Of a stretch of DNA of 29,449 nucleotides, positions 9,701 to 28,498 are shown one piece after another. Position 1 is the stretch's first letter. The number at the start of each line of letters is the position of its first letter. The stretch lies in the NCBI GenBank assembly GCA_002269645.1, contig NIVC01004985.1, forward strand, positions 1-29,449. The letters run 5' to 3'. This DNA comes from Macrostomum lignano. Taxonomy: Eukaryota. The notes beneath the pieces are model-generated. The model was not told the origin of the DNA. It was given only the letters and a program-made list of their open reading frames with translations, and ran no database searches. A program made the translations under genes and the position numbers.

Positions 9701-12128
9701 TTAGTCCTCATTGATGCACTTCTGGCCATCTGTAACAAGTCCAATAGCGGCCAGTGCTATCACCAAAGACACGGTAATGCCAAAATAGAACGCAAACAGG
9801 CAGGTGTCAACGCCTGAAATTATGGTGCTCCATTGACAGCGCAGAGCGTTCTCGCAGGCGGTCTCAGACTCGTTGTCGGGCGACAAGCTCTGCCGGACTG
9901 AACCGTCGGCTTCCGGCTGCCGACGGCTCCGACGAGCGACGAACGAGTGAAAGAACAGCGTCCGGAGCAGACGTCCCGGGGGAGCGGCGCGGCAACACCG
10001 GCTGTGGCAGCTGAGAACGAAGGCGTTGCCCAAGACGACGGTCATTGTCATCACCACCGCCAGAGTGCAGTAGCAGGCTGGACCAGGAAATAGAAGAGAG
10101 TGGGCGAGTGCGTATGAGAAAAATTTGAAATCGAGTGGGTTAACGTCGAGAGGAAGTGGTACATACAAAGCCGTGGGTACAAGTAAAGGATGCCGGAGCT
10201 CGTGCTACATTGATAAGAAGAATAAACAACAAACTAGCTCGTACGAGGTCCGGCAAGTAAGTATGCAGTCATTCATTCACAAGGTCGTCTGGTATGCAGA
10301 TAGACTCGCATTAAAAAACAACTCAACAAAGAACGTGATAACCCAAGCCACTCTAAGTTTATAGCTAAATTTCTTTTGCGAATTTTAACTTGAGTAACTT
10401 TGCTGTTGTTACTCAAAAATCATTACAAATCATTTTCATCAACATAAACGTAAATCATAAACGAATAGATTTATATCGTTTTTTGTCGAGTGACACAACT
10501 CCTGTGCAATTAACTGCAGCAGATATCTGGATTTATGTCCACAGAACTCACTTAGCAGAGGGACGGATTCACTCTGCGTGGGCGTGTGCTCATTCACCAT
10601 CTGCAGGAACACGCACATGGACAGCACGATGGTGATGCTGAATGACATCCGCTCGCCGCAGTCCGGTGGCAGTCGGAAGGTGACGGTGGAGATGGCGAGC
10701 AGCAGGAGGCTGGGCAGGATTAGGTTTATCACGTAGAAAATGGGCCGTCTCTGAAAAAAAATATTGGAACGTGATGTTGCCTAAAAATTTTGCAAGCCAA
10801 TTAAATTTTTTAGATACAGACGCAATATTCTTACCTTGAAAGTGATGGCAAACTGCAGAATATCAAAGTAGTAGTCCACAGTCTTCCTGATTGTCGCTCC
10901 TGTAATGCAAAACTCGTCGTTGCGGGCCAGGTACTTCGTGATGGAGTCGTTCTCTAGGTAGGCTCCGATGTGCAAAGCCAGCACCTGCTTCGAATGAATG
11001 GCTGACGAGATGGGCACTACGCAGCGCTGCTTGTCATAGGGAAACTCGAACATGCTCATTGGGCACTTGCTGGTAATCACGTACTGGGAGGTGTACATTA
11101 CCGATCCCTGAGAGCTAACGTGAGCCATTGCGTTGCTAAATGACACCCGCTGTATGAACAAGCTGCAAGTTTTGGTTGGACAGTGTAACGTTGCAAGCAT
11201 CCCGAGGATTGCTTTTTTATTGCTCTTGAGTTTAGTAACGTCTATTAGAGCTTCCATTAACCATGCAGTTCAGACACACGATTTGCTTACTCTTAAAATG
11301 CTTCAGTAATGCCGCATCGTCAACTCGTTGAATCCGCAAGAAAAATGTTGTACAAAGTCCCAGTAATATTCTATAGAGGGCTTCTACTTACCAGTTAGAG
11401 GAATATACAAAAGCAAAGTGGGTATCCACATTGCAGACTGTACACTCGTATAAACAACCAATGGACTCATTGATTTTTTTTTCATTTATATTAATTAATA
11501 CACAAACGAGTATCTACCTAGTAGAACAGAGCAGCTAGTGAGAATCAAAATGGTAACGAACACATCCCGGTCTCACAGATCGATGAAAGACACATCCGGT
11601 AGCCACAGCAGCCTGGCCGGAAAGTAGACCGCCGTCTCGCTGTCCAAACTGTCGTTGAAGCGACCGTGCCAGGCAAGTCGGCGGTCTGTCCAGGACTGGA
11701 AAAAAGTTGATGACTTTTTACCTGTTGCTGATCCTGAAAAATCTGCAGAACATTAGAGAGTGATTCGCGGTCTCTAAATATGTCTTACCAGTGTAAGCCA
11801 CAGGAGTAGACTGACCTCCTGAGATGCGGAATTCTGAACAGCAGAAATAATGAATAATTAATGAGTAAATGCGAGGAACATTACGTACATAAATCAAGTT
11901 CATTAGTTGATATCGTCCAAAACTCACGACAGCCACCAGACTATTAAAGTTGGTGTGCACCCGGACCAGATTAGCCGTCCCATTATCCGGTGGCGGTCTC
12001 ACATCCGGGTTGTAGCCGTTGGCAGACTTTAACCGCAGTGCCGCGGCAATTCGTTCATCAGAGGAGACATCTGGCACCGTGGCGGTCGCGGTGGCAGCGC
12101 AGATCAAAATTAGGCCTAGTAGCAGCAT
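9701..12128 (-). CDS. Cys-loop ligand-gated ion channel subunit A (nAChR-like, non-alpha), apparently intact, ~422 aa
   Basis: Six exons with GT-AG introns in consistent phase: 12128-11928, 11833-11789, 11695-11577, 11162-10835, 10750-10552, 10077-9701. Signal peptide, WTDRRLAW, LWLPDV, Cys-loop CPMSMFEFPYDKQRC, M1-M2 FRLPPDCGERMSFSITIVLS, M3, M4. Confidence 0.88.
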
Positions 12129-13086
12129 GTGAGATCAGTAGCCCTGGTCGCACGGAATTGCTTAGAACTTCAGCTGAAGTCTTGTGGGTCTAACTGCATC
12201 TACCACTGGTCATGCAGGCCATCCTATATCCTTTTTAGTGGCAGTGCTTTCTGTTCGTCTATCCCTCAGAATCCACTCATCTCAGTCAGTTCCACATCCC
12301 TGGCCTCAGTGTTTACCCTTCTGCCCGGATCCGCTGGCCCGACCTTGCTTGGCAAAGCACTCTGTTTCATCAAATTTGGTCGTGCATGGCTCACTAAAGC
12401 TGCATATATGCATATCGTTATATAACATCACGTTTCTCCCTGGGCCACCCTTCCAATGTTCAGAATCGTACCTTTTCTGCACGTTAAATCGCCTGTCTCT
12501 GCAGATAGGAGTATCTGCTTTTTATGTGCCAATTTCTCTTCTTTGTTTTTCTCCTTGCTAGCTCCCAGAGAGTCTAAACGCATTCTACTCATTCTCTCTG
12601 ATTCAAGCCTTGTGGCCCGCTGTCAGAATCTTTTCATAATCCTATTCATATTTGAGCTTTCAGTCAATCGTTGATAGTTATTAACAAACAGAGATTCGCT
12701 GAGCAAACAAAATCTGTCCGCTTGCTCTGACACGAGCTTCATAGTCAGTTGGCTCAAAAACTTTCAATTAATAAAATCAGCATGACAGCTTTTTGCTGAT
12801 CCCAAAAAGGCATCAAAGTCAGTGAGTAATGCTCCTTTTGCGTCAAAGGTGATATATATTTATAGGACTTTCCTATTGTAGTTTAATTTGCAACGAGTAG
12901 CACTAGTAGTAGTTTGTGCAGCTGTTAAAAATATAGTATTCATTACGGTTTTCTACTATAAATAAATATTCCTTCTTCGGATATACTCTTCCGACTATCT
13001 AAAGTCCATCTGTAACTCGAAGTTGTCTCTGTTAATCCAAAATACTTCGTGGTCGTGACTGCCCAGTTCTTCACAACTCTTCATCT

Positions 13087-15152
13087 TCAATAATTACTCG
13101 ACATGTCGCAGTTGGTCCGCGAGTTCGTGATCTCCAGGATTAACAGCGTCAGCGTCAGCGCCAGCTTCAGGCTGAAGAAGACAGCGAAGAAGCAGCGGTC
13201 GGCGGCGAACAGCAATGGGGATCCATTCTTTGCGAGGGTCGTTGTCCCGGCAACGCGGAGTCTGCTCCGCCTGCGGTTGACTTGGCGTAGCTGGTCGCCT
13301 GGGCGAGACGACGTTCAACTCGCTCTCGTTGGATTCCTGCGAATGGGGTGCCAATTTTAACCGCAAATGGACACAGAAACTTATAGATCTGCCAAATCTG
13401 ACACAGGCTTGGCAGTCTTAACAAAATCCAACCCAGCTCTCCGTCTCTCCCTTACTCTCACCGCGTTCCGGACAGCGGCGGTGGCGCTGTGGTTTCGAAC
13501 CTGGTAACACTTTCTGCACTGCAGCCGGGCACATGCGAACATATTGAGAAACAGAAGTCGCATTAGCCGGCTTGGGACTTTGGTATGCTCATTCTCGGAC
13601 GAATGCTCAAAGTAGCAGCTCAGTACGAAAATGTTGGCAATCAAGTGAAGCATTGTCAGAAACACCGCGAGGCTGAAGTACCAGGCTGGAAATTGGAGGA
13701 GGACAAATAGGTCATGAGTCTCAATATTCCAGCCTGTAGTTCACTCTCAGTGTTGGATTGAAATTAGCTCGAAACTCACTGAGCAAAGGCACAGATTCCC
13801 CCTGTGGAGGCATATAGTTGCTGCTGAGCTGCAGGAACACGCACATAGACAGCACGATGGTGATGCTCAATGATATTCGCTCTCCGCACTCGGGCGGCAG
13901 GCAGAAGACCAGGGTAGAGATGTAGAGCAGCACGAGACTCGGAATGATCAGGTTCATGAAGTAGAATAGTGCTTTACGCTGAAAGTGTCAAAGGTGAAAC
14001 TGGCTCTGCGAAAAAACGGGGACTATGACAGGGGAGTCCACAAAAAGTGTGTGATCCCCGTTCCAACTCAACCAAATTCTGAGAAGTTTCTACCTTTATT
14101 TCCACCTGCAGCTGAACAATATCGTAGTTCCACTTATCGATAGAATTTGAAACGCTGACGTTCATCACGCAGAAGTCGTGGTTCTTGAAGAGGGAAGGCG
14201 TGATTCCAGGTGGTCCAGGCTCGATGCGCAGTGGTTTTTCTCGTGTGCACCACCGAAGATACGCGCTGGTGGCAGATCTGCGTGTCGTGTAGGGAAAGTT
14301 GGCCATATTCATTTCGCACTTGGACCAGGAGAGCAGCTCAACAAGGAACAGCACCGAGCCGTCGCTGCTTAAAGTCAGGAAAACTTTATCGCTGGAGGTG
14401 CGCCGGAAGTGCAGGCTGAAAGGTTACATGAGTACCATTAGATGAATGTCACCGTTAGTCCATTATCTTGAAGTTTCTCTAAGAGAACAATCGGGGTGCC
14501 ATTGGGAGACTTAGCAAAGCGGTATGGCTGCAATTGCATAGGAATGATCAAGCCCAAGGAAAAAGTGTCGCACTTACAGGTTGCCGAAGGCCACATCCGG
14601 TTGCCAGAGCAGACTGGCTGGCACAAAAATGGAGCTCACGTTATCGAAGGTAGAGTTGAATTTTCCTTTCCAGGCCAGGCGGCTGTCCCGCCAGTACTGT
14701 AGTGAAAGTGCAAATTAAATGAATCGATAGCTCACTGCTGCACCGTGAGTCTGATGTAATAAAACTCGATGCGTCAATGTCTGCGGCAGCAATGAACTTA
14801 CGAGTCACGTACCAAATTGAACCAGGTTTGCAGCACGATCTCCTGCGTTGCCGAGTCCTTCATTTTTTGGTTAGAAATGATTTAATGCTCACGATCTGCT
14901 CCAAAATTCAACATTGTTCTCACAAAAAATCGACAAAGCCGAAGTACTCACCACATGAGCCAGGCTTTTCAAGTTGAACAAGACGGTCACCAAGTTGGCT
15001 GAGCCGTTGTCCGGTGGCGGCCGGACGTCTTTGTTGTAGTCGGAATTTAAATTCAGCGCCGTTTTCAGGGCCTCATCCGGGGACACTGAGGCAGCCGCCG
15101 CGGCACGGCAGAGCAAGAAAACTATGAAGCTTGATAGCGGAGACTGCGGCAT
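13087..15152 (-). pseudogene. Cys-loop channel subunit B, frameshifted
   Basis: Same exon layout (YNKDVRPPPDNG; DSATQEIVLQTWFNL; YWRDSRLAW; CEMNMANFPY; FCLPPECGERISL). Has +2/+1 indels inside the Cys-loop exon (~14290, ~14233) and a +1 shift before M4 (~13208). Confidence 0.8.
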
Positions 15153-15715
15153 GCTAATGAGCTGGAGTCTGGACGCGGCTCAGACAGGTGGTTTGGGCTC
15201 ATTATTTATCCAGCAGTTGCAGCCCCTCCATTCCCCACTTCCCCAGCCAACTTGGACATCCCCGGTAGAGTCTGCCTCGGTAATTATTTCTCTTTTAAAA
15301 CCTCTAAAAGCGTTGACAGCTTGAGCTGCAGCCAATAAATTCCTGCCCGTTAACAACCCGATAGGGGCAATTATTATTGGATGCGAAGACAAATTGAGAT
15401 AATAAAATTTATAAAAAGAGTTAAGACTATTTATTGAATTTTTGACAAATAGAGTTTGCAGGTAGTTAGGCTACGGAGCAGCTAAGTAGGTTTTATTACC
15501 TCTACGTTGCTCAAAGCCCATTTACGTAATTGACAAAGTAGTTACAGACCACTAATTGCACAGAGGGTGGCTCACTCGCATTAGGTTTTGTTGTGGAGTG
15601 CGTATTAAAAATTAAAGCATTTTGATGGGGCAGCTGCAGGCCTATGGCTGCCAAAAAAAGTATGAGAAGTATGTCACCAAGGATATATTATTAGCTAAAC
15701 TCAAGAAACTATTTT

Positions 15716-16475
15716 TTAACTGTCAGACAGACACGCTACTCATAGCAGAATCTAAGCCAGCGTCAGGCCGAAAAAGATCGCGAAAAAGCAGCGGTCAGCA
15801 GTGGCCACGACAGCGCTCCAGCTGTTGACATCAGTGGCCCGGCAACGCGAAGGCTGCTCCAACTGCGAGTCGAAGTTGACGGTTCGTCGCGACGAGATGT
15901 CGCTCATTTCTTTGCTGTCAGCATCACTGACCTGTGGGACCGTGACACATTTGGTTTGGCTTCTCCTGATAAAACGGCACTAGCAGTAAACGAACACTTA
16001 CTCCGATGGAGCTTCGTTGCGCAACACTGTTAAAATTTTTACTTCTGGACGGCTCTCGACAAAATCGGCGCCCGCAGACGAATCTATTGAGAAACAGCAG
16101 CCGAGTCAGACGATTGGGGACTCGAGCATGCTCAGAAAACTGCTCAAAGTGGCAACTCAGAACGAAGGCGTTAGCAACCAGATTAGCCATGGTCAGAAGT
16201 ACCGCGATGCTGAAGTACCAGCCTGCAGAATTTCACAGGAGCAGGTCCTTATTCAACAGACACTATTTTTAATCTCAATAAAATAAAAGAGTCCGGCCGC
16301 GACACTCACTGAGCAGCGGTACAGAATCTCCTTGAGTTGGTATGTAATTGTCAGTGAGCTGCAGGAACACGCACATCGACAGCACGATGGTGACGCTCAG
16401 TGACATTCTCTCGCCGCATTCCGGCGGCAATCGGAATACCAAAGAGGAGATGGCGAGCAGCATGAGGTTCACGAC
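15716..16475 (-). pseudogene. Cys-loop channel subunit C, transmembrane half only
   Basis: FRLPPECGERMSLSVTIVLS, WYFSIAVLLTMANL and ADRCFFAIFF exons are present. M1 lacks the IIPSL segment, M4 has TAG at 15754-15752, and no extracellular-domain exons were found before the viral element. Confidence 0.8.
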
Positions 16476-16684
16476 AGAATGCTGTCCTTCGCTGCAGTTT
16501 GAAATGCATGACAAACTTGTATTGCCTATCAGCATAGAATACAAAGTGAAAAGAACCTGAGCACCAAACCTACATAGCAACTCGGAGCTCCACATATTCG
16601 TATTGCACATCTACTGACTTGGCTGTGCTGACGTTGACAATGCAGAAATCACTGTTCCTATCCAGGTAGGTTGTCAGCGAGTCC

Positions 16685-16933
16685 AGTAGTATATACGATA
16701 CAAAATAGCCAGCAAACCGTTCTCACCATTGCAAACAATTTAACCCTTTATCAGTGTGAAATGACTTGTTTTCCCTTCATTTTCGCTCGTCTTCACTTCG
16801 CTCAACTCGCTTCGCTCATCCTCGCTTCATTTCGGTCAAACAAGTCATTTCACACTTACAACGATTAATTCTCTTTGAATGGTGAGAACACGCTCTCGTC
16901 GAACGCTTTGGTTTGCTGGCTATTTTGTATCGT
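16685..16933 (+). repeat. Left terminal region with an internal inverted repeat
   Basis: 16695-16718 is the exact reverse complement of 16910-16933, and 16719-16730 of 16878-16889. Confidence 0.85.
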
Positions 16934-17023
16934 CAACGCTTCCAACTCTCCCCAATACACACAAACTCTCTATAACCCGTCGCACGCGCCGCAGGCGCGA
17001 AGGGTCTTTTTCTGTTACTAAAA

Positions 17024-17338
17024 ATGACCCGAGTTTACACCTTTTCTGTTAGTGATACTTTTGAGACTGTTGCTAAAAATGCAGAGATAATAAAACAACA
17101 TATCTTGAACGGAATAATTGATGAAGTTTATTTAAAATATGACGATAAACATGACCTAAAACTTTATCCATTAGAGTTAGATGAGATGTATGATTTAGAA
17201 CAAGAGGGAGAGTTAATATTTCAACTTGGAGATTATTTAAATTCGGATGATTGGGAGGTTAGATCAACAGATTCCGAATCAACAAATAGTTCATATGAAA
17301 CCAGTGATTCTGAGAATGAAATTGAAATTTTTATGTAA
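17024..17338 (+). CDS. Small acidic hypothetical viral protein (104 aa)
   Basis: ORF preceded by TAAAAATG, like other element genes; D/E/S-rich; no motif recognised. Confidence 0.6.
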   Translation: MTRVYTFSVSDTFETVAKNAEIIKQHILNGIIDEVYLKYDDKHDLKLYPLELDEMYDLEQEGELIFQLGDYLNSDDWEVRSTDSESTNSSYETSDSENEIEIFM

Positions 17339-17353
17339 AAAAATATTTAAAAA

Positions 17354-17578
17354 ATGAATTATTATTCTATAACAGAAACGACGTTTATTATGAAAAATAT
17401 ATATAAAAAAATGAAGGTAAATTATTCCTACATCGGAAATGTGCCGGTTAATGAACTTAATCAAAATTTAAGTTTGATATCTGTTGAACAAATGTCAATA
17501 ATAATCTTAGTAACAATAATAGTAATAATATTGTTTTTGTTTGTTATAAAAAATTTACTACCCTGTTGTCTTAAGTAA
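17354..17578 (+). CDS. Small single-pass membrane protein (74 aa)
   Basis: AAAAAATG start; hydrophobic IIILVTIIVIILFLFVI followed by PCCLK. Confidence 0.55.
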   Translation: MNYYSITETTFIMKNIYKKMKVNYSYIGNVPVNELNQNLSLISVEQMSIIILVTIIVIILFLFVIKNLLPCCLK

Positions 17579-17588
17579 CTGTTCAAAC

Positions 17589-19195
17589 TTAGTTCGCAGA
17601 CATTAGCTGGTTCTCATAAAAAGAACCCAATATTTCTTCACCGTCCTTATCAGCAATTATATAGGTTGTAGGATTGGTATTTAAAACTTTACTGATAGTA
17701 AATTTCTCACTTATTTTCCAATATCCTTTTCTTCCCTTTTCAAACTTATCTTTCCATTTATAGATATAAACAGAATCACCAACCTTAAAACCTTTAGTTT
17801 TCTTTTTTTCAAATTCTCCAAAAGTAACTTTAACTTTTTCAGGATTGTTATAAGCTTGTTGAGGAGTCATCTTTATAGCCGAATGATATGAATTGTTATA
17901 ATCTTTCACAACGTCTGGTAATATTTTTACCCACTTTTGATTTCCATTCAGACTAAATTGAAACCACAATTTCTTACCTAAAGTTCGATTAAATCTTTCT
18001 ATTAATGCGTTTTTACTTTCGCCGTAAATAGAATAAATTTTATTAATATACTCCCCATTCGCGTCTTTTTTCCTTTCTTGTCCTTTTTCAAAATGATATA
18101 ATTTATACATATGAGGATTGTAAAATTCTTTTCCTTCATCAACACACAACCTTTCACTTTTTTCTCCAAGACTTCTAAAAGCAGCCGCAACATCCTCTCC
18201 TTTTTTGGATTTTAAAGGAACAGCCCACGCATATCGAGTAAAACCATCTAATATGGTTAAGATATATTTATATCCTCTTTCGTTCGGCATCGACATTAAA
18301 TCAGCATACCAAATTTCATTCTTTTTGAAGTTCATGATTTTTCTATAAAATTTAGGTTTTCGATATTCTTTATGAAGAATCTTTGCCTCATCAGAACTTA
18401 ACCCGCCGCCACTTAATAATAAACACTCAACACAATTATTTCCATGTTGATTGTAATTAATTCCCAATCCAAATTTAACTTTAGACTGTAAGATTTTTTT
18501 AACCATCCACCGAGTTAATCTTTGGCTTACCGATAACCCCTGTAAGTTATCTAATCCTTGAATCATTTTTCTATCAGCTTCATGTTTTAATCTTAATGCT
18601 TCCTCGGGTGAGTTCTTATCAGCATCTCTGTATGCTAAGTCATGATAGTATGCTAACCAATCAATACCGTTAATGGGAATTGAATCGGCTTTTGGTGTAT
18701 TATCAGGATTTAATCTCAAATCTAACCTAGTACCCGGCAGTTTGCCCTAAATCTTTCGAAATAGGCTGGAGCACACCTTAAGCGGATAAATTACCGCCCA
18801 CCTCCGTCTGCTCTCTGAACCTTCTCCATATCTGCCGACTTAGGAGCTTGGCTGCGCATTGCCACCGTGTCTTCAAGCTTGTTACCTTTGGGAAGAGGAG
18901 TTACCTCTGTTCCTTCAAAAGATTTCTCAATTGAAGTGGTACTTGAAGCTGTATGACGGGTTTCGCGCAATTTGAAGGTGTCGCCACAAATAGTGACTAG
19001 CAAGGACATTGCCTTCCTCACTCAGGCCACGGGTTAACCTGCGAAGTTGTAAGACGGGATGTGTAATTCATTTGTATACCTTCCAGTAGTAAAGATTGGT
19101 GGTAAGCTTGTTAATCCTTTTTGAACATCTAACAATCCTCCTTCAAATACTAATTGTTCGAACCTTCGGTTCGCATGCGTCGCATGATCGCTCAT
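17589..19195 (-). CDS. PLA2-RVE integrase fusion, 435 aa after intron removal (exons 19195-19037 and 18737-17589)
   Basis: Spliced junction ELHIPSYNFAG|PGTRLD..PINGIDWLAYYHDLAY..EADRKM is a parvovirus-type PLA2. It is followed by the DDE triad WYADL, CVDEGKEF, NALIERFNRTL and the Polinton-type C-terminus FEKG..W..EKF..GEEILGSFYENQL. Confidence 0.92.
18738..19036 (-). ncRNA. Group I self-splicing intron (IC1-like), 299 nt, no internal endonuclease
   Basis: Exon ends in U and intron ends in G. P1 CAGGU/GCCUG with U.G at the splice site; P3 CACCUUC/GGAGGUG; P4 UUGCGC/GCGCAG; P7 GA-GAGCA/UGCUCC; P5abc with A-rich bulge and GAAA loop; CCUAAG/UAUGG receptor; P8, P9, P9.0, P10. Excision restores the reading frame and the GPG motif. 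Confidence 0.96.
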
Positions 19196-19745
19196 TTTTA
19201 ATAGCCTTAAAAATACATGAAAGCACCAATTGTTTTGCAAATTCTTCAATGGTTGGTTGCTTAACTTTTTTATAGTTATTATCTACGCTAGTTAAGTATC
19301 TTTTATTTCTCCAATTTTCAGACTTTTTAATCTGATCTTCGTCTTTGTAACTAAATGAAGAAGCGGGAATGAAATGATCAATATCTAACTTTCCAGTATA
19401 ATTTTTTGGAACATAATAATTTCTTGTGAAATTTAACCAATCAAAAAAGAATTCTTTTGTGCAACCAAGATAGGAGATATAATGCTTGTCATGAAAAGTT
19501 CTCAATGCCCAATTTATTCTACCTCTAATTAGACTAATATTTTTGTAATTTTCATCAGTGCGATATTTATTTTTTGCATATTTATTACATTTATCTTTAT
19601 TGTTTATTCTCCACATAGTACATTTAACTTTCTCACAAGATCGACAAAGATTTTTAATTTTTTTTGTGTCATTTCTCCAACAAAAAAATTCTTTAGTCAT
19701 CGGTTTCTCAATTTTACACGTAGTACAAATCTTTTTAGATTCCAT
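19143..19745 (-). CDS. Free-standing HNH-family endonuclease with N-terminal Zn finger
   Basis: CTTC..CRSC, YLGCTKE, DIDHFIP..SFSY..WRNKRYL..DNNYKK resemble HNH endonucleases of large eukaryotic DNA viruses. Its 3' end overlaps the PLA2 start by 53 nt. Confidence 0.75.
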   Translation of the reverse strand: MESKKICTTCKIEKPMTKEFFCWRNDTKKIKNLCRSCEKVKCTMWRINNKDKCNKYAKNKYRTDENYKNISLIRGRINWALRTFHDKHYISYLGCTKEFFFDWLNFTRNYYVPKNYTGKLDIDHFIPASSFSYKDEDQIKKSENWRNKRYLTSVDNNYKKVKQPTIEEFAKQLVLSCIFKAIKNERSCDACEPKVRTISI

Positions 19746-19772
19746 TTTATAAAAAATAAATTTAACAATTAA

Positions 19773-20444
19773 TTAAATACCTGTATGTCCAGCAGCTTTC
19801 GCGGCAGCTAAAACAAGTTTTCTAGGAGTTTTAAATCCTTCACCAACAGCCGGCATGTTATTTATAGAATTAACAATCCTTTTATACAAGCTGGTATTTT
19901 TAACATGGGCTACTCCTAACTCATCGTAAAAATTTTTAGCACTTACTAATTCGTCTCTAGTATATAAATCAGGGTTAAATTTTACCCTAGGGTTCGTAAT
20001 AATATTAAATGCTCCACCCAATTCTCTATATAGTTCATTTCGATTTTTATCAACTCCACCAATTCGATAATTACCACCACCTAAATCTGTCACAGCAATA
20101 CTACGTGGCGCATCTCTTGGAAATTCTACCCGATTACCCCGATCTGCAGCCCTAATCTCTGCAACTCTCAATTGAGCTTGATCAACATCATAAGCAGGTG
20201 GCTCATCCAAAATTTCATCCTCTTTTGGCTCCGTATTTTTAGCAATTTTTTCCAGAAGGTCTTTATCTGTTTTTTCTAGTTCACTAATTTTCCCCGTAAT
20301 AGGATTAACAAAAGGAGCAGCAAATTTTTCACCAGCTAATTGTATTCCTAACTTTCTTTTTTGTAAATTTCTAACAAAATCAGAATATCTTTGTTTCTCT
20401 TTATAAATCGCTAACTCTCCATCAACGTCCATAAATTGGCTCAT
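19773..20444 (-). CDS. Hypothetical viral protein (223 aa), possibly core/DNA-associated
   Basis: Clean ORF divergent from the capsid gene with AAAAAATG start; charged helical N-terminus (KFAAPFVNPITGKISELEK). Confidence 0.7.
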   Translation of the reverse strand: MSQFMDVDGELAIYKEKQRYSDFVRNLQKRKLGIQLAGEKFAAPFVNPITGKISELEKTDKDLLEKIAKNTEPKEDEILDEPPAYDVDQAQLRVAEIRAADRGNRVEFPRDAPRSIAVTDLGGGNYRIGGVDKNRNELYRELGGAFNIITNPRVKFNPDLYTRDELVSAKNFYDELGVAHVKNTSLYKRIVNSINNMPAVGEGFKTPRKLVLAAAKAAGHTGI

Positions 20445-20478
20445 TTTTTAACATAAAAAACTTTTTTAACATAAAAAA
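20444..20478. promoter_or_regulatory. Candidate bidirectional promoter with a tandem 17-nt repeat
   Basis: TTTTTTAACATAAAAAA at 20444-20460 and 20462-20478 fills the 34-nt gap between two divergent ATGs. Confidence 0.5.
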
Positions 20479-21951
20479 ATGGCTGAAACAAAAACTATAT
20501 GGAGTGATAAATTTCATTTCAAAAAGCACCGTCAGTATATTAATGAGGTCAGAGCGAGAGATTTAAACTATACTCTACCAACAAGCGATAATACAAATAA
20601 CTTTACTAGCGGAACGGTAGCTTTTGACATCGGCGCAACCAACACCATATTGGATATGAAAAATGCATTTTTCCGCGTTAGATGGTTGTATACTAGAAAT
20701 GATGGAACTGCTCTAGCAGCCGGAGATATCGCAGATCGATCTGGAATAATAATAGAAAATGATTGGTTTTATAAATGTTTTTCCCAAGCTCAACTAACTG
20801 TTAATGGTGCCGAGGTTGAGACATCATCAAACCCCGCAGAGATTAATGGAGTTTTGAAACATTTAAATTATACTTATTTATCAAAACAAGTTGGTGATAA
20901 TGTTGGGTGGATGCCGGATAAGGGCAATGGTCAAGCAGTAGTTTTCCCTAATGTACAAAACGCAGCTGGTGCAGATACTGCAGCTCTTATTGCTTACATT
21001 AATACAAACATAGTTCCAGTTGTAACCACCATGACTAATACAAAAGATATTAATACTGGTTATATAGATAGACAGAATAAATTCCCAGTTGCAGTTTTAA
21101 CCACGGCAACGGCATATGAGCAGGACTTTTCAATCTTTCCACTATTTGGATTCTTCTCACCAAATCGGGTATGGAAAGGATTAAAATTTGGGGTACAGTT
21201 GCAAATATCTGGTGGATATCAGCCTAGGATACTTTATGGAACCTCTATTTCAACCGATATAGCAGTTCGCATAGCATCAATACAATTAGTCGTGCCAACT
21301 ATTGAGGTAACAGCACCACTTTTAAAACATGTCGATAATCAGTTAACGCATGATCAAGAAATATTTTATTTGAATCGTAGACATTTTATGCGAACCATTA
21401 ATAATAATCAAGATTCATTCCAGTGGCAAATACTGACATCAAAACGTCGGGTGAGATATATTTTTGTTTGGTTTAAGATAACAAATAGAAGGAGTAAAAG
21501 AGCAAATGGGGATTTATATTGGCTTCAATCAGGTGATGTAGCAGCACAGGGTGCCACTGCAACAGACAATGCGGTTGCGGCCATTAACGAGTTTAATGTT
21601 CAGAATATCCGCCTGCAGGTTGATGACCAATACTATCCGGTTAAAGATCCTCTTAATCTAAATATTGCAAATAATGATGTTAATGATTTTATAAAATATT
21701 ATCAAGATTATGCCAAAAATGAAGCGTTTGCCGTCCCTCAGTACACACCCACAGAGTTTCTAAACATTCATCCAGTAGTTGTTTATGATCTAACGGCACA
21801 GAAAGAAAATGTAGCCAATGTTGGGCTTAATTATATGTTAGAGATTAATAAAACCGGTAATCAGGCAATAGACGCCCACGCTTTGTTTCTAGAGGAATAT
21901 ATGTCAATTGCTAAAGCCGACGGCACCATCGTTCGGGACGCCCCGCTGTAA
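20479..21951 (+). CDS. Major capsid protein (double jelly-roll, Polinton PY/hexon-like)
   Basis: 490 aa, beta-rich; KCFSQAQLTVNGAEVETSSNP, RRVRYIFVWF, NIRLQVDDQYYP, HPVVVYDLT; located upstream of ATPase and penton. Confidence 0.88.
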   Translation: MAETKTIWSDKFHFKKHRQYINEVRARDLNYTLPTSDNTNNFTSGTVAFDIGATNTILDMKNAFFRVRWLYTRNDGTALAAGDIADRSGIIIENDWFYKCFSQAQLTVNGAEVETSSNPAEINGVLKHLNYTYLSKQVGDNVGWMPDKGNGQAVVFPNVQNAAGADTAALIAYINTNIVPVVTTMTNTKDINTGYIDRQNKFPVAVLTTATAYEQDFSIFPLFGFFSPNRVWKGLKFGVQLQISGGYQPRILYGTSISTDIAVRIASIQLVVPTIEVTAPLLKHVDNQLTHDQEIFYLNRRHFMRTINNNQDSFQWQILTSKRRVRYIFVWFKITNRRSKRANGDLYWLQSGDVAAQGATATDNAVAAINEFNVQNIRLQVDDQYYPVKDPLNLNIANNDVNDFIKYYQDYAKNEAFAVPQYTPTEFLNIHPVVVYDLTAQKENVANVGLNYMLEINKTGNQAIDAHALFLEEYMSIAKADGTIVRDAPL

Positions 21952-22000
21952 GCGGTGCAGGTCTCCGACCGTCGCACCAATTTAAATTTTATCTTTAAAA

Positions 22001-22763
22001 ATGGCAAAAGCAAAACACAATAAGATATTTCCAAATGATCCTTTTCTTTGTTTAGTAATTGGTGGGTCGGGTAAAGGAAAAACACACTTTGTTTATGACC
22101 TGTTAACAACGGATGGAATGATAGACTATAATAATTTAATAATTTATACTAACAAACCTAGAATAAAATATTATGAATTTCTTAAACATGGATTAAAAAA
22201 CAAATTAAAAAAAGATGTCTTGTTTAGAATGTTAAGAGCATATGAGCAATATGAGGATGATGACGAACCGCGATTTACACTCGATGACATTGAGGATTTA
22301 TGTAAAACAATGGCACAACAACCGGAAAACATCACCGAACGAGCCCCAACCGTTAGAGTATCAACCCGATTACCCTATCATCAAATTCCAAAAAATGATA
22401 AAACACTAATTATTTTTGATGATTGTATTAACGACAGTGATCAAGAATTGCAAAAGGATATTTTTGTTAGTGGTAGAGGGGATGGAATTGGCGCTTTTTA
22501 TCCAACACAGTCCTTTAGAGAATTAGAATCGATTATAAAAAAATGCAAGTTGTTGTGTAATGTTTGATTTAGATAATTATGATTTACAAAATATACACGC
22601 TAGATTTAATCCCGGGTTGGATATAAAACCATTTAAAAGTATGTGTAAAAAAATTTGGGATGACAGCCAATACAAACATATATATATCAACCCTAGGTTA
22701 GAAAGGAAAAATCGAATCTTAAGAGATCTGATAAAAGAAGATAATGAGGAAGAAGAGACTTAG
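22001..22763 (+). CDS. A32/FtsK-like packaging ATPase, one frameshift
   Basis: Walker A GGSGKGKT, Walker B LIIFDD, GRG..FYPTQS. The frame changes in the A7 run at 22537-22543 and continues as NASCCVMFDLDNYDL..YKHIYIN. Confidence 0.9.
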
Positions 22764-22811
22764 TTCGTTCCGAAGGAACGCGACCCTACGGGGCGATTTA
22801 CCACTATAAAA

Positions 22812-23597
22812 ATGGCAACAAATTTAAATACTATAAAACAATTGGTAGATAGAACTAATTCAAAATTTAGTACAACCTTACAGTTTATAATGACAACCAG
22901 TGAGCAACGGATTCAATTGCGCGATCCGTTACAACTCGATCAAAGCCTAAGTTATCAAATAGGTTTGATATTATTTTCGGTTTTTAACATGCCTCAATTA
23001 ATTAATGCAACAAATAATCAATTTAGATATTCTAAAGATTCAGGAGCCAATTGGACAACATTTAGTGTTAGCCCGGGTGCGTATAGCTATACCGATTTGA
23101 ATGCTTATATCGAAGGAGAATTAACAGCTAATGGCGATTGGGTAGCGGGCGCGATTGTTATAGGTGTGGATTTACCGTCTGGAAGATTCACACTATCACT
23201 AGAATCCGGATATCAGGTTGATTTTACAATTGCAAATTCACTCAGAACCATACTTGGATTTAATTCCCGAATAGTTACCACATCAAGCACCGGCGATACA
23301 GTTGGAAATATTGAGGGTGGAGTCAACACAATTAATATAACAACCGACATATCAAACGGCGGTTATATAACAGACGATAACGGAGTTTTGGTTCAACGTG
23401 GAATTATATATTCAATACCATTTCTTGCTGTTCCAATTGGAGAGAAAATGATTGTTTCACCTCAAACCCCAATATATTACCCATTAAATCAATATAGTGT
23501 TCAATCAATTTATATTAGGATTGTAGATGAAAGCGATAGATTAATAAGTTTTGGTGGGCAGTCAATAACAGTGATTTTACGTATAAAACAGGTTTAG
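22812..23597 (+). CDS. Minor capsid protein (penton, single jelly-roll)
   Basis: INATNNQFRY, PGAYSYTDLN, PQTPIYYPL, IRIVDESDRLISFGGQSITVILRI are typical of Polinton PX proteins. Confidence 0.88.
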   Translation: MATNLNTIKQLVDRTNSKFSTTLQFIMTTSEQRIQLRDPLQLDQSLSYQIGLILFSVFNMPQLINATNNQFRYSKDSGANWTTFSVSPGAYSYTDLNAYIEGELTANGDWVAGAIVIGVDLPSGRFTLSLESGYQVDFTIANSLRTILGFNSRIVTTSSTGDTVGNIEGGVNTINITTDISNGGYITDDNGVLVQRGIIYSIPFLAVPIGEKMIVSPQTPIYYPLNQYSVQSIYIRIVDESDRLISFGGQSITVILRIKQV

Positions 23598-23607
23598 TAC
23601 TGTAAAA

Positions 23608-23778
23608 ATGGGTAACAATAGTTTAAAAAAGCAATCATATAAAGTTCAAAATGCAAAAGATAATTATGAAATCGAATTAACAAAATTAAAACAATTACAG
23701 GCAGAAAAAATCCGAAAGGAGCTGTTAAAATCCAAACCTACAAAACTAACTAAAACCAAGAGTTTTTCAGGAACATAA
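23608..23778 (+). CDS. Small basic protein (56 aa) not in the ORF track
   Basis: TAAAAATG start; MGNNSLKKQSYKVQ..FSGT*; exactly fills the penton-protease gap. Confidence 0.6.
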   Translation: MGNNSLKKQSYKVQNAKDNYEIELTKLKQLQAEKIRKELLKSKPTKLTKTKSFSGT

Positions 23779-23779
23779 A

Positions 23780-24220
23780 ATGACCATGACGTGGGATGAT
23801 TTTAAACAAAGATATGGAACAGACACAACAAGCAATATCGAATTAACAAATTGGGCGCGGCAACTAAAGATAAAACCATTCAGATGTGTTATGCGGGATG
23901 AGATAAAAAATTTACCAATATATGGATGTTTCATTGTTAACATCGAAACGACAAAAGAAAATGGTGTTCATTGGTCAGCAATTTATTCAAAACCTAAACT
24001 TGTTTATTTTTTTGATTCATACGCGCTTCCTCCGTTACAGGAAATAAAAGATAAATTTAATCATACTAAAAATCGTTTATGTGGAGATCATCACGAACAA
24101 TTTCAAACTTTTGATAAAAGTTATTGCGGACAAGCGGCGTTGTATTTTTTATATAGGGTCGAAAAGGTAAAACAGGTAACTCCCGAAGTATTTAAGATAA
24201 TTTTAGATTCTATAAAATAG
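23780..24220 (+). CDS. Adenain-like cysteine protease (maturation protease)
   Basis: GVHWSAIY, YFFDSY, QFQ...CGQAALYFL give the His/Asp/Gln/Cys catalytic set. Confidence 0.92.
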   Translation: MTMTWDDFKQRYGTDTTSNIELTNWARQLKIKPFRCVMRDEIKNLPIYGCFIVNIETTKENGVHWSAIYSKPKLVYFFDSYALPPLQEIKDKFNHTKNRLCGDHHEQFQTFDKSYCGQAALYFLYRVEKVKQVTPEVFKIILDSIK

Positions 24221-24229
24221 ACAGTAAAA

Positions 24230-26275
24230 ATGTTATTTTCTGGAACGCCCTCATGGAACGGAACAACAAGTACTGGTGGTGGTACGTCTGGTGGAATAAG
24301 CGTCACATTCGGAGATAACCGATATATTAATGAAGATGAAGGTTATAAAAAAAGTGAAGTTGATACTAAACTAAATTTAAAAAGAAATGTTGCAGATTCC
24401 TATACCAAAACTCAAATAGATGATTCATTAAATTTAAAACGCAATACGGCCGATTCTTATACCAAAACCGAAGTTGACAATGGGTTAAATTTAAAAAGAG
24501 ATATAACTGATTCTTATTCTCGAACTCAAATCGATGATTCATTAAATTTAAAACGCAATACGGCCGATTCTTATACCAAAACTGAAATAGATAATTCATT
24601 AAATTTAAAAAGAGATATTGCTGATTCTTATACCAAAACCGAAGTTGATAATTCCTTAAATTTGAAAAGAGATATAACTGATTCTTATACCAAAACCGAA
24701 GTTGATAATTCCCTAAATTTGAAACGGAATGTTGCCGATTCCTATACCAAAACCGAAGTTGATAATTCATTAAATTTAAAACGGAATGTTGCCGATTCCT
24801 ATACCAAAACGGAGGTTGATAATTTAGTTGGAGGTGGAGCCCCAAAACAAGATCGATTCCAAACGGTTGAAACTGGTCACATACCTACCATGGCAGATTG
24901 GAGTGGAAATGGTTTTGCAATAACCGCAAGCACCGCATTTAATACAACCGATTTTGCAAGCTGGAAAGCGTTTGATGGTGATGATTCAACAGATTGGGCA
25001 ACAAATAATACTCAAACCGATTATTGGATTCAAGTCCAATGCCCTTCCGCAATAATGTGTTATAAAATTGATTTGCGTGGTAGGCCATCGCCATCAACCG
25101 AACACCCAGCATCATGGCGATTTGAGGGGAGTAACGACAATACAAGTTGGGACGTATTAATACCTGCGGATAGTTCTGTAGTAATAAATAACTCAACTCA
25201 AACAATTAATGTCACACAAAATTTTGATAAAACATATTCATATTTCAGATTGTTCTGTCTTACATCAACCTCGGGTTCAACCAACCCCGGCTTGTCAACC
25301 TTCCAGATTTATAGACAGACGTTTACAATTCTTGATTTAAATTTAGGAGTGGTTAATCAATCAATTGATATGGGTAATAATACAATTACTAATATCTCTA
25401 CAATAAACGATAACACTTCTGTTGTTACTAAAGGTTATGTTGATACGCGAGTAACCCAAACGGCGGATGGCCGAATGTCTTTTAACGATAAAATAAAATT
25501 GGATGGAATACCCGCGATTGATGCCGCTTTGTACGAGCCTGTGATTTTCAATTGGACTGGATATCAAAACCCAACCACAGCCGGCGATATTTTTCCAACT
25601 GGAAGTTTTGTTGGTGACGCTACTTATATTGATTATCAAAATGGAGCTAGAATTACTGATGAAGCAAGTGGTCAGTCTGGAGCGTTGCAATTTAATTTCA
25701 CCCATTTTCGTAATATATCCGCCTCCTTCTATTTCCGAGTTATTAATGCCACAGGAAGTGGTGCTGATGCGGTTTGGTTTTATGCATATTGTCACGAACG
25801 TCCAACAAGTGAATTTGGATCCGGGTTAACAACCAACGCCGGCTTGATTGTGTTTGCGAGTGAATGGCATGATAGAGTTGGAGTTGTTTGGAGTAATATA
25901 AAATCAGACGGAGCAACAGTTCGTAATGATGTTCTTAATGATGCTGATCAAACTATAACTTATGCAAATATTGATAACGGCGATTGGCATTTATTTGAAA
26001 TTAATATTTTAAATCAAAGAGTTTGGTATCAAATAAGCACATACAATGTTTCAGCTAAAACATATACGCTAATTGGGCAAAACTTTTTTACATATGATAG
26101 TGGAACTTGGGGAGAGTTAGATAAAACGGGAACTCTTATGGGGTTTGGTGCTAGAACTGGAGGGGCAGATGCTGCACATTTTATTCGTGGCGCTGCCGTT
26201 TGTGGTAGCACATCAGCAGGATCTGATTTTGCTGCGACCGCATATTTGGAACAGCCACAAGCCGAAATAGCCTAA
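24230..26275 (+). CDS. Fiber/receptor-binding protein: repeat shaft, discoidin (F5/8C) domain, L-type lectin-like domain
   Basis: 19-aa YTKTEVD repeats; AFDGD..W..WIQV..SWRFEGSND..W; VVTKGYVD fiber motif; SGADAVWF..WHLFEI..GFGARTG. Confidence 0.8.
   Translation: MLFSGTPSWNGTTSTGGGTSGGISVTFGDNRYINEDEGYKKSEVDTKLNLKRNVADSYTKTQIDDSLNLKRNTADSYTKTEVDNGLNLKRDITDSYSRTQIDDSLNLKRNTADSYTKTEIDNSLNLKRDIADSYTKTEVDNSLNLKRDITDSYTKTEVDNSLNLKRNVADSYTKTEVDNSLNLKRNVADSYTKTEVDNLVGGGAPKQDRFQTVETGHIPTMADWSGNGFAITASTAFNTTDFASWKAFDGDDSTDWATNNTQTDYWIQVQCPSAIMCYKIDLRGRPSPSTEHPASWRFEGSNDNTSWDVLIPADSSVVINNSTQTINVTQNFDKTYSYFRLFCLTSTSGSTNPGLSTFQIYRQTFTILDLNLGVVNQSIDMGNNTITNISTINDNTSVVTKGYVDTRVTQTADGRMSFNDKIKLDGIPAIDAALYEPVIFNWTGYQNPTTAGDIFPTGSFVGDATYIDYQNGARITDEASGQSGALQFNFTHFRNISASFYFRVINATGSGADAVWFYAYCHERPTSEFGSGLTTNAGLIVFASEWHDRVGVVWSNIKSDGATVRNDVLNDADQTITYANIDNGDWHLFEINILNQRVWYQISTYNVSAKTYTLIGQNFFTYDSGTWGELDKTGTLMGFGARTGGADAAHFIRGAAVCGSTSAGSDFAATAYLEQPQAEIA
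24344..24823 (+). repeat. 57-bp coding tandem repeat, 8 full units plus a partial
   Basis: Encodes YTKTEVDNSLNLKRNVADS variants; explains the antisense pseudo-ORF 24366-24845. Confidence 0.95.
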
Positions 26276-26331
26276 GGCTAAAGCCTAAGTCGCGAACCAA
26301 AGGTTCGATAACTTAAATATTTCTATATAAA

Positions 26332-26661
26332 ATGGCTTTTAGTAGAACTCCATCGATGCGACAAAATAACAATGTTATTATTCCTATTCCTAAACAAGAA
26401 TCAAATATAAAAACATACAAATCTCATACCAAATATTTATTTAGCCATGTGAATGTTCAGGATAATAAGAAACTTCAAGAATTAATTAAATTGTTAAAAA
26501 ACCATATCATACTTCAAGAGTTTTGGAAAATAGGATTTAAATGGGAGAAAAAAGAAAGAATCACTCCGATACAATACCTATTGAGCTCCGGACAAATACC
26601 CAAAGAGCGTGGGGAATTCATTTTGGTGCTATTAAAAATAGACGAAAATGTCGGTGTCTGA
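26332..26661 (+). CDS. Hypothetical viral protein (109 aa)
   Basis: TATAAAATG start, codon style of the element. Confidence 0.6.
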   Translation: MAFSRTPSMRQNNNVIIPIPKQESNIKTYKSHTKYLFSHVNVQDNKKLQELIKLLKNHIILQEFWKIGFKWEKKERITPIQYLLSSGQIPKERGEFILVLLKIDENVGV

Positions 26662-26790
26662 GGCAGATAAAAGGGAACGTGACCATTTTAACCAACGTAA
26701 AGGTCACATGTTAAGTAATGTTGATCGTATTAACTATGATTATATTTATATGTTAAAAAAGTAAGAAGGATTTCAAACCATATCAGAAAT

Positions 26791-27299
26791 ATGGATTTTT
26801 TCAATATTGGTTTTGGAAGCTTATCGATGTTATGTGTAATCGTTTTAGGTATTTTACAATCTATTCCAACTCTTAATTTATCTCAATTATTTTTAGGTAT
26901 TTCAATTGGCTCAATATCAGGATTTGAATTAATCAGAAATTTATCAATACTTATGGCAATTAAATTATATCTTAAAAAACGAAAGGATAAATATAAATCA
27001 TTAAGAGATATTGCAAAACAATATAAAAATCAGTTGTATTTATATGTGCAAAAATATTGGATGATGGAGAGATAACAATTCATGAGTTATCAACGGCGGT
27101 TGAATTATATGAAAAATATTTAAAAGATCGAAATAGAATTTTAGATGTTGAAACTTTTACCGATATGGAGTTAAAAGAGTTGAGACTCGATAAACCCAAA
27201 GCTCCGCCGATAGAAACTATTGAATACAAACCAGAAACTATGGCTATGGGGGTACAAAGCCCCCGATCAGGTAGCGCTGTAGAACTTCAAGTTGTTTAA
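26791..27299 (+). CDS. Polinton-type membrane protein split by one frameshift
   Basis: Two hydrophobic segments, then a shift at the A5 run 27050-27054 giving QKILDDGEITIHELSTAVELYEKY, similar to the DGxI..E..KY tail recalled from Polinton membrane proteins. Confidence 0.6.
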
Positions 27300-27779
27300 T
27301 TTTTCTAACGCATACGTTATATATTCTTCCCAAAGTGGTAATTCTCTTGTAATTCTAGGTTTAAATTTTTTATCAATACATAAAAATTCCAATGACTTTT
27401 TCAGTAACATTTCGTTAGGTATGTTACCTATCCTTATAAACTTTGTATTCTCTCGAATAAGAAAATTAAAATAATATCCAACTAAAATTAAAATCCTTTC
27501 GGAGTCTTTCGAACTTAATCCCTTTCCTTTATTTAAATTGAAAAAGTTGTTATATAAATAAACATTATTTCCGGGAATTAAAATTGGATGAGAAATGTCT
27601 CTTGTAAGATTTCTTAATATTGTGTTTTTAAAATAGTAATATGAATTTTCAATCTTTTTTGTTTTTTCAAATTGATATATTTTAGAACATGAATAGCACA
27701 TATGATATATATCTCCGCTTGCTGTTTGAGCTCTATGCATAGTCACGTTACATTTTTTACATTCGTAAATGTCTTTCAT
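27267..27779 (-). CDS. Hypothetical protein with N-terminal Zn ribbon
   Basis: CKKC..CYSC; AAAAAATG start. Confidence 0.65.
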   Translation of the reverse strand: MKDIYECKKCNVTMHRAQTASGDIYHMCYSCSKIYQFEKTKKIENSYYYFKNTILRNLTRDISHPILIPGNNVYLYNNFFNLNKGKGLSSKDSERILILVGYYFNFLIRENTKFIRIGNIPNEMLLKKSLEFLCIDKKFKPRITRELPLWEEYITYALEKLNNLKFYSAT

Positions 27780-27805
27780 TTTTTTGTTATTTTTTTAGAT
27801 TAAAA

Positions 27806-28138
27806 ATGGAAAGTTGGTTGAAAACCGATTCTAATGTGATTAATTATGTCACCCCCAATATGTTGGAGAATAAAGAATATAATATTATATGTTTGAGACA
27901 GGTTAAATTTATTGGACTTCAATCGATATTTTTACAATTGGATTCACATACAGTTCTATGTCTAAGTGGGAATGATGTTAAAAATTTTCCAGTTTTAGTT
28001 ATTAATAAACCTAAAGCGTTCATTATAAAATACAGCACCGAGGGTGGGTTGCAATTTAAAATAAAACAAACAAAAAATAAAAAGAGTGACAGGACTGTAA
28101 AATTAGCTTCCGTTTGGGAGACTGACGAAGATGACTAA
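27806..28138 (+). CDS. Hypothetical viral protein (110 aa)
   Basis: TAAAAATG start; no motif recognised. Confidence 0.55.
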   Translation: MESWLKTDSNVINYVTPNMLENKEYNIICLRQVKFIGLQSIFLQLDSHTVLCLSGNDVKNFPVLVINKPKAFIIKYSTEGGLQFKIKQTKNKKSDRTVKLASVWETDEDD

Positions 28139-28222
28139 ATTTTTTTATAAGAAAATGGAGATACAAATTATCCTTATCACTAAAGAGCGTGAACTTAATT
28201 ATATTAATAAAAAATAAATACT

Positions 28223-28498
28223 ATGTTTTATAGTGATTATGGGGACGATATGTTTCCTATCCGATACGACTTGGATAAAAGAAAGCGTTTTATACAAAAA
28301 GCAATTGATTATGCTGAAACAGTAATTGAAATTGAAATAGATAGATTGGTTAGACGAATAAAAAAACTTAGGAAAAAAATAAAGGAATGTTTAAGTTACC
28401 CTGCCGACTGCGAGGACAATTGGCCTTCAATAATATATGAAATTGAAGTTAATGATATGGTCAAACAATTACATGCTTTGGTTTTTTTCAAGTGCTAA
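28223..28498 (+). CDS. Hypothetical viral protein (91 aa)
   Basis: Clean ORF, helical and charged; no motif recognised. Confidence 0.5.
   Translation: MFYSDYGDDMFPIRYDLDKRKRFIQKAIDYAETVIEIEIDRLVRRIKKLRKKIKECLSYPADCEDNWPSIIYEIEVNDMVKQLHALVFFKC

Follow-up and report, generated by a model that had tools for sequence, protein, structure and literature searches.

Two alternating nucleases beside a group I intron in Macrostomum lignano Polintons, with a predicted GGNCC cutter as the intron's best-supported candidate partner

Introduction

The window analysed here, the whole 29,449-nt stretch at positions 1-29,449 (forward strand) of contig NIVC01004985.1 in the Macrostomum lignano assembly GCA_002269645.1, contains a group I intron without a nuclease gene and, close by, a free-standing gene for an HNH-like protein, an arrangement that raises the question of whether the two spread together. 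An initial annotation proposed that they do: the HNH protein would cut the intron-less DNA of co-infecting or co-resident Polintons at the intron insertion site, the intron would give immunity, and both would be co-converted, as in the collaborative homing reportedly first described by Zeng and by Bonocora and Shub, both in 2009. Following this proposal across the copies of the element in the genome, we find that the signs of a nuclease directed precisely at the insertion site favour an Eco47II-like allele which is absent from the window, and it is this partner outside the window that makes the locus more interesting than it first appeared.

Results

A Polinton with an interrupted PLA2-integrase gene

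A Polinton occupies the far end of the window, starting at 16685 with its left terminal inverted repeat (TIR; 16685..17006, unstranded, 322 nt, beginning AGTAGT), which matches the TIR of one full-length copy at 95% over 322 nt. Polintons, or Mavericks, are recognised by TIRs, a 6-bp target duplication, an rve integrase, an A32 ATPase and PolB, and all of these hallmarks were found: paired TIRs lie about 17 kb apart in 5 of 10 copies, 6-bp direct repeats flank 2 copies, and the integrase, the ATPase and PolB motifs are present, the capsid and protease calls being based on position and short motifs only. The 13 element ORF starts inspected (window 17024-29449) all have a TAAAATG or AAAAATG context with AT-rich DNA before it; that of the PLA2 gene described below (ATG at 19195) is of the TAAAAATG/AAAAAATG type, as at the 12 others. 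We take this context to be reminiscent of the late promoters of cytoplasmic large DNA viruses.

Several features of the element and its surroundings are recorded here for completeness. Only 2 of 10 long copies are matched by the PolB region (window 28490-29449), and in another copy an endonuclease VII domain is part of a 1029-aa ORF; at least two PolB alleles appear to exist in the window's family of elements (family 1). The 681-aa ORF at 24230-26275 combines tandem repeats of 19 aa with an F5/8 type C domain; its C-terminal part varies between copies, and its product is likely a fibre or receptor-binding protein. In the host flank, repeated exons of neurotransmitter-gated ion channel genes (PF02932) extend over 9701-16610, the last ion-channel ORF ending about 75 nt from the Polinton start; a C-type lectin gene lies at 5000-5752, and a 357-aa ORF at 2994-4067 (minus strand) has a weak QRICH1-domain match and a C-terminal stretch that, we presume, resembles tyrosine-recombinase transposons.

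The interrupted gene lies on the minus strand. Exon 1 (19037..19195) ends with a Gly codon and exon 2 (17589..18737) starts with the Pro codon of an F/Y-x-G-P-G motif, which presumably resembles the calcium loop of parvoviral PLA2. Exon 2 is one open frame matching both PF00665 (rve, E 8e-8) and PF08398 (PLA2-like, E 0.022); since it is in frame with the rve integrase, the host gene is a PLA2-integrase fusion, a point missed in the initial annotation. The two exons are contiguous in intron-less copies, which set the intron boundaries and show a precise insertion between the Gly and Pro codons.

The intron itself (18738..19036, minus strand, 299 nt, here called type A) scores 60 bits against Rfam RF00028 (gathering threshold 50, E 2e-13), and three other copies score 61-85 bits. 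A P1 with a U.G pair at the 5' splice site is present in its fold, and P7, P9.0 and the terminal G can be read from the sequence. As first annotated, it carries no nuclease, the sole ORF of at least 60 aa being a 72-aa frame across the ribozyme core. The terminal G is found in the window copy and in the inspected copies of a second Polinton family (family 2, see below); 83 of the 112 family-1 type-A introns end in A and not G, with P7 and P9.0 unchanged, which puts their splicing efficiency in doubt. An A-ending group I intron is known from Coxiella. In the contigs of four public runs (three guessed to be RNA, one other) no join skipping 18738-19036 was found, a negative that says nothing about splicing. 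At the same 5' site, L106 (1467-1800) and 23 other loci hold a type-B intron of about 326 nt, which shares positions 35-167 with type A at 78% and differs from it in the core and the 3' end; it has no Rfam match at E<=0.01 and is possibly a ribozyme of chimeric origin. An optional 30-nt piece, a GC-rich hairpin, is present in those type-A introns that measure 333 nt, and short GC-rich hairpin inserts also occur at gene junctions in the window (19159-19174, 22781-22795 and 26292-26307); they are possibly terminator-like or a miniature mobile repeat. The intron core matches viral introns at about 70% over 180 nt, and the intron resembles those of giant viruses.

A predicted HNH nuclease next to the intron

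The free-standing HNH gene (19143..19745, minus strand) encodes 200 aa, with an N-terminal Cys finger and a predicted domain of the beta-beta-alpha-metal type. Its annotated position holds throughout: the ORF stops 106 nt from the last base of exon 1 (19037) and overlaps the start of the PLA2 gene (19195) by 53 nt, the overlap being about 20 nt in three other copies inspected and the window copy having about 33 extra nt. The gene is preceded by an AT-rich start motif ending in TAAAATG (19746..19772, minus strand), which is common to the alleles of both nucleases described below and resembles the sequence preceding the intron-encoded ORF, and the nuclease slot is bounded at its upstream edge by a conserved 223-aa Polinton gene (19773..20444, minus strand).

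The zinc-finger/HNH-like identity proposed from the start has gained a catalytic motif and a confident structural model, with fold matches that stay weak. An HMMER search returned 1,437 relatives (a word-index homologue search gave no match), and across 104 aligned homologues H124 never varies and D123, N147 and N156 hardly ever do; the alignment places the predicted active-site codons, D123-H124...N147...N156, at 19278..19379 (minus strand). The AF2 model (pLDDT 93) has a strand-strand-helix at residues 120-159, fold searches repeatedly returned HNH domains (Cas9, IscB, Cap5, BrxU) at low scores (best E 0.066, Z at most 5.4), and the N-terminal finger was matched, also weakly, by Hpy99I (best Z 5.4). 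The window protein matches no Pfam HNH family, PF01844 being matched by 6 of the 104 alignment members, and nothing in PHROGs; in the Atlas it reached unnamed viral clusters at 0.95 and HNH clusters below 0.9. Among the 102 copies with the gene, a full ORF is kept in 71, with both catalytic asparagines in 70 of these, and the median dN/dS of 0.46 (78 allele pairs) indicates that the gene is under purifying selection. Its alleles diverge to 53% identity, and the flanking genes stay near 90%. The window protein is most likely an active, diversifying HNH nuclease, as predicted from these data.

Relatives of this protein are found in introns. The homologues P0008 (a cluster of 7) and P0051 end in translations of the core of the window's own intron type, and another relative runs into the group I intron of a giant-virus capsid gene (L262). 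The intron-core tails of P0008 and of P0173, a homologue of the second nuclease described below, are near-identical, suggesting that both nuclease types swap within one intron family elsewhere; the read-through tails of both types can be aligned with the window's intron, starting at its positions 34-88. A quick tree groups the free-standing HNHs in a clade of their own (SH-aLRT 98) that excludes P0008. Viral contigs searched with PLA2-integrase, HNH and restriction endonuclease queries yielded no relative, and the 28 loci that a 5'-junction motif search picked out there were without similarity.

It could be argued that the HNH protein is passive or structural, acting for example in packaging or terminal processing, or that it is a decaying remnant which lies close to the intron by coincidence. 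A packaging role of an HNH is suggested for one PLV in the available text of PMC12220804, and 31 of the 102 copies are without a full ORF. However, the gene is optional, an unrelated nuclease standing in its place in 37 copies and no HNH occurring at the slot position in 14 family-2 loci; its alleles have diverged far beyond the genes around them, and its relatives are intron-encoded. We regard this explanation as very improbable.

Two nucleases alternate in one slot

The genome was searched with the junction DNA, the HNH and exon 2, the exon-2 search being blind to intron and nuclease (150 of its 512 candidates were scored), and we classified 180 fetched loci, 17 of which were dropped as duplicates and some of which may be assembly haplotigs. 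Family 1 accounts for 149 loci, 10 unclassifiable and 139 classifiable: 82 with HNH and intron A, 17 with HNH and intron B, 3 with HNH and no intron, 30 with an Eco47II-like restriction endonuclease (REase) and intron A, and 7 with the REase and intron B. A nuclease thus fills the slot in 139 of 139 copies, HNH in 102 and REase in 37, never both and never neither, and the intron is present in 136, that is, with 99 of the 102 HNH copies and all 37 REase copies. Two of the three intron-less HNH copies have a full-length HNH ORF with the catalytic motif; integrated copies may be silent. The same three intron-less family-1 copies were recovered by a search with the intron-less family-2 protein.

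Because the intron is near fixation whichever nuclease is present, co-occurrence of nuclease and intron says little. Linkage is no more telling of a pair: across 81 copies the nuclease-intron AMI is 0.08-0.21, against 0.20-0.24 to distal exon 2, several hundred nucleotides off, so that a co-conversion tract cannot be seen; three HNH clades and the REase all stand in front of the commonest exon-intron haplotype. The near-fixed intron, the intact intron-less HNH copies and the lack of excess linkage together indicate that HNH and intron are not a fixed unit.

These results bear directly on the initial annotation. The co-occurrence that it predicted is seen in 99 of 102 HNH copies and broken by the two intron-less copies with a full HNH; its view of the HNH as the intron's specific partner finds no support, since 37 intron-bearing copies carry the REase and three HNH copies have no intron, and neither does HNH-intron co-conversion, linkage being no higher than for distal markers. 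On both of the co-occurrence grounds that had been fixed beforehand as counting against the pairing, the REase-slot copies, the intron-less HNH copies and the absence of excess linkage tell partly against it. What remains of the proposed collaborative homing unit is its architecture, a free-standing nuclease beside an ORF-less intron, with HNH relatives in related introns.

One might nevertheless maintain that the HNH cuts the intron-less Gly-Pro junction, that the intron confers immunity, that both co-convert, and that the REase is a parallel solution. We consider this rather unlikely. The 99 of 102 HNH copies with an intron agree with it, yet the intron is near fixation regardless of nuclease, accompanying the REase in 37 of 37 copies. 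The HNH shares its slot with a nuclease that other elements encode within the intron at this site, and the tails shared by P0008 and P0173 place the HNH type in the same intron family; against this, the free-standing clade stands apart from P0008 in the quick tree. Two intron-less copies retain full HNH ORFs with the catalytic motif, and there is no excess linkage. Taken by itself, cleavage by the HNH at the exact Gly-Pro junction is doubtful. The preferred reading is that the HNH is an interchangeable occupant of the slot, likely a free-standing homing nuclease.

An Eco47II-like enzyme beside and inside the intron

The other occupant resembles type II restriction enzymes. Its intron-encoded form scores 26.2 bits against PF09553 (RE_Eco47II; cut-off 25.9), and the free-standing forms score 20.6 and 23.8 bits. 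The REase model (pLDDT 89.6) finds EcoO109I as its best fold match (Z 9.8, the next at 7.1); in Foldseek it gave four matches at E<=0.001, DdmD at the top and EcoO109I and AvaII, whose site is GGWCC, among them. A PDB sequence search with the REase profile returned nothing relevant. EcoO109I is described as cleaving RG^GNCCY (PMC3089450), and GGNCC is assigned to Eco47II homologues in PMC10305163. The REase is accordingly predicted to cut GGNCC, fold likeness being no proof of specificity and the true site possibly being longer than GGNCC. The full ORF is present in 25 of the 37 copies, with a dN/dS of 0.29.

Family 2, about 60% identical to family 1 in PLA2, holds the same enzyme in another position. 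In 23 of the 28 family-2 loci fetched (L211-L238) an intron at the same site contains the REase ORF, a 62-66% identical homologue, within a peripheral loop; the family-2 intron aligns to positions 7-43 and 51-225 of the window's intron, flanking its ORF, which places the corresponding loop position at 18987..18993 (minus strand). About 20 intron-less family-2 copies occur alongside the intron-plus-REase copies. An independent JGI metagenome contig (L383) likewise has a REase inside an intron at the same site, and, of nine REase homologues found in other assemblies, six have an intron-core translation at their end, five of them passing tblastn. In one family-2 copy (L162:917-1594) an unrelated 225-aa ORF lies directly upstream of the PLA2-integrase gene.

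No methyltransferase family was found among the 14 ORFs of one full REase element or among the window ORFs, in a scan that could miss short or divergent ORFs; the cognate methyltransferase that marks a type II restriction-modification system was thus not seen among the ORFs scanned. If the enzyme is active, self-protection would rest on site avoidance and the intron.

GGNCC is avoided and persists at the insertion site

Intron-less alleles read GGN/CCN at the Gly-Pro junction, the slash marking the insertion point, so the intron interrupts a GGNCC word. The word was found at the site in 16 of 16 intron-less alleles (17 loci checked), and silent escape from it is impossible because Gly-Pro codons spell GGNCC whatever the wobble bases.

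Elsewhere in the elements the word is avoided. Of 256 gapped words GGNCC shows the strongest depletion in each of 11 element stretches, which amount to two or three independent observations and not eleven, as copies within a family are related. Its counts are 0-2 where a Markov model expects 8-19, an expectation that can overshoot up to about 2-fold (the flanks have 11 against 20.8, and the longest ORFs used as a control have 41 against 76). The window element has none where 12.9 are expected, four REase elements have none where 15-19 are expected, and four further HNH elements have 1-2 where the expectation is 10-17. In the host flank (16.7 kb), by contrast, 36 were counted against 35.8 expected, and six unrelated, GC-richer Polinton stretches of the same genome have ratios of 0.73-1.14. 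A 10-kb stretch of an intron-less family-2 element contains GGNCC once, at the insertion site. That the depletion extends to elements without the REase suggests past or population-level pressure and not self-protection alone. Whole-element counts (REase 0, 0, 0 and 0; HNH 0-1 besides the junction) are too small to use. The words CCNGG and CTNAG are also under-represented, 2-3-fold, in family-1 elements. A tolerance of GGNCC near the slot in HNH but not in REase copies was considered and rejected, the word occurring there in 3 of 99 HNH and 0 of 37 REase copies (p 0.56); in the three HNH copies it appears to fall within foreign insertions. Among 640 palindromic words scanned, none was clearly depleted in HNH elements specifically.

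Taken together, the intronic REase, the EcoO109I-like fold, the GGN/CCN site and the depletion of GGNCC make the predicted GGNCC cutter the intron's best-supported partner. As a unit, REase and intron show the intron in 37 of 37 free-standing copies (weak evidence, as 136 of 139 copies have one), a target interrupted by the intron if the predicted specificity is right, and a composite form.

The last 30 nt of exon 1 (19037..19066, minus strand) form a polymorphic tract. Diversity at codon positions 1 and 2 reaches 0.195 there, compared with 0.069 immediately before it and 0.005-0.075 in exon 2. Such an amino-acid-changing peak is beyond what a GGNCC cutter can account for; a long-site nuclease could explain it, and the tract is a candidate target for one. 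This peak, lying at most 30 nt from the site, also accords with homing by the HNH at the junction, and it could alternatively reflect relaxed constraint.

A different possibility is interference without homing: the nucleases would destroy competitor, helper-virus or host DNA, and the intron would be selected for immunity. A 5-bp cutter would hit unprotected genomes often, as a restriction enzyme does (36 sites in 16.7 kb of host flank), no co-conversion signal is seen, and interference of this intron-nuclease kind is proposed for Bodo saltans virus in the available text of PMC5871332. In rivals purged of GGNCC, however, the single copy at the insertion site would make the cut site-specific; moreover, transfer is suggested by an intron at the same site in two families that share only about 60% identity in PLA2, and about 20 intron-less family-2 copies coexist with intron-plus-REase ones. 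As the sole explanation we hold interference to be unlikely, and it can act together with the one that we prefer.

Discussion

We somewhat favour a combined mechanism, in which the intron shields a lone GGNCC site and homes with the REase, and the HNH is an alternative occupant of the slot with a longer target nearby; for the REase-intron part of it our confidence is considerably greater. The GGNCC at the insertion site would be the one site that the Polintons likely cannot mutate away. The REase would cut it in competing intron-less elements, repair from an intron-bearing copy would transfer the intron, which is homing, and repair would sometimes carry a free-standing REase gene along, which is collaborative homing; the gene would travel inside the intron in family 2 and beside it in family 1. 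HNH alleles would invade the same slot, borrowing both the start motif and the stop within the PLA2 gene, and would probably cleave or nick rival alleles close to the insertion site, with the polymorphic end of exon 1 as the candidate target; they would escape self-cleavage mainly via flanking polymorphism and not strictly via the intron.

As a 5-bp cutter would be lethal in a nucleus, the gene is probably expressed only while the element is extrachromosomal, in a viral phase that may take place in a giant-virus factory; by analogy, the uniform start motif and the giant-virus-like intron would fit transcription in the factory of a helper virus. The fullest account is one on which we are evenly divided: that Polintons made a methylase-free type II REase into a homing nuclease, purging its site except for one intron-masked Gly-Pro junction, that free-standing, intron-encoded and HNH-replaced stages of collaborative homing are found side by side among the copies of one animal nucleus, and that the elements, as this would imply, still compete as extrachromosomal viruses, probably in giant-virus factories.

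If this is true, a restriction enzyme with a short site does the work of a homing nuclease because that site is avoided genome-wide, a different way to specificity from the long sites that known homing families recognise, and one genome documents both the free-standing and the composite stage that have been predicted for the birth of a mobile intron. It would also be an indirect, testable sign of an active viral phase in which Polinton copies meet and compete, a long-open question, and it would mean that the nuclear assembly of an animal harbours more than 130 group I introns; the available text of one review has group I introns absent from metazoans except for basal lineages and five sharks (PMC10964413). 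In the literature searched we found no animal Polinton intron and no restriction-type nuclease paired with an intron via site avoidance, although subscription papers, Repbase and supplements (such as tables S11-S12 of PMC12220804) may bear on this. In the available text of the PLV papers, collaborative homing is only a hypothesis, for other genes (PMC11296320; 10.64898/2026.10.13.758929), and that of a nematode Polinton paper merely speculates on an intron origin of a PolB-fused HNH (10.1101/2023.08.22.554363).

By analogy, the arrangement would work like the collaborative homing of phages, and it shares features with four known systems. (i) F-CphI and the ORF-less psbA intron of cyanophage S-PM2 are described as a case of collaborative homing (PMC6083498), and here, as there, a free-standing nuclease adjoins an intron-containing conserved gene and the intron interrupts the target. 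The proposed end state of the process is a nuclease inside the intron (PMC2988022), and a REase-in-intron form is present in the same M. lignano genome. Unlike the cyanophage case, the present one concerns a eukaryotic virus that integrates into an animal genome; its slot is taken by one or the other of two unrelated nucleases, and the best-supported candidate partner is restriction-like, with a predicted 5-bp site and element-wide avoidance. (ii) The seg and mob genes of T4 undergo intronless homing, and mobE promotes homing of the nrdB intron in trans, according to PMC2988022; as in that system, an optional HNH-type nuclease gene lies between conserved genes and overlaps the start of the downstream one, whereas here the distance to an intron is very short and the activity is a prediction. 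(iii) Group I introns are described in giant viruses (Bodo saltans virus, PMC5871332) and in protist PLVs (PMC12220804), and with these the Polinton introns share a related core, HNH relatives inside introns and ORF-less derivatives; they differ in the PLA2-integrase host gene, the animal Polinton, the REase-type ORF and the number of nuclear copies, more than 130. (iv) With the type II enzymes Eco47II, EcoO109I and AvaII the REase shares its Pfam and fold matches and a predicted target word that coincides with the insertion site; unlike them, it has no cognate methyltransferase among the ORFs scanned and lives in or beside an intron.
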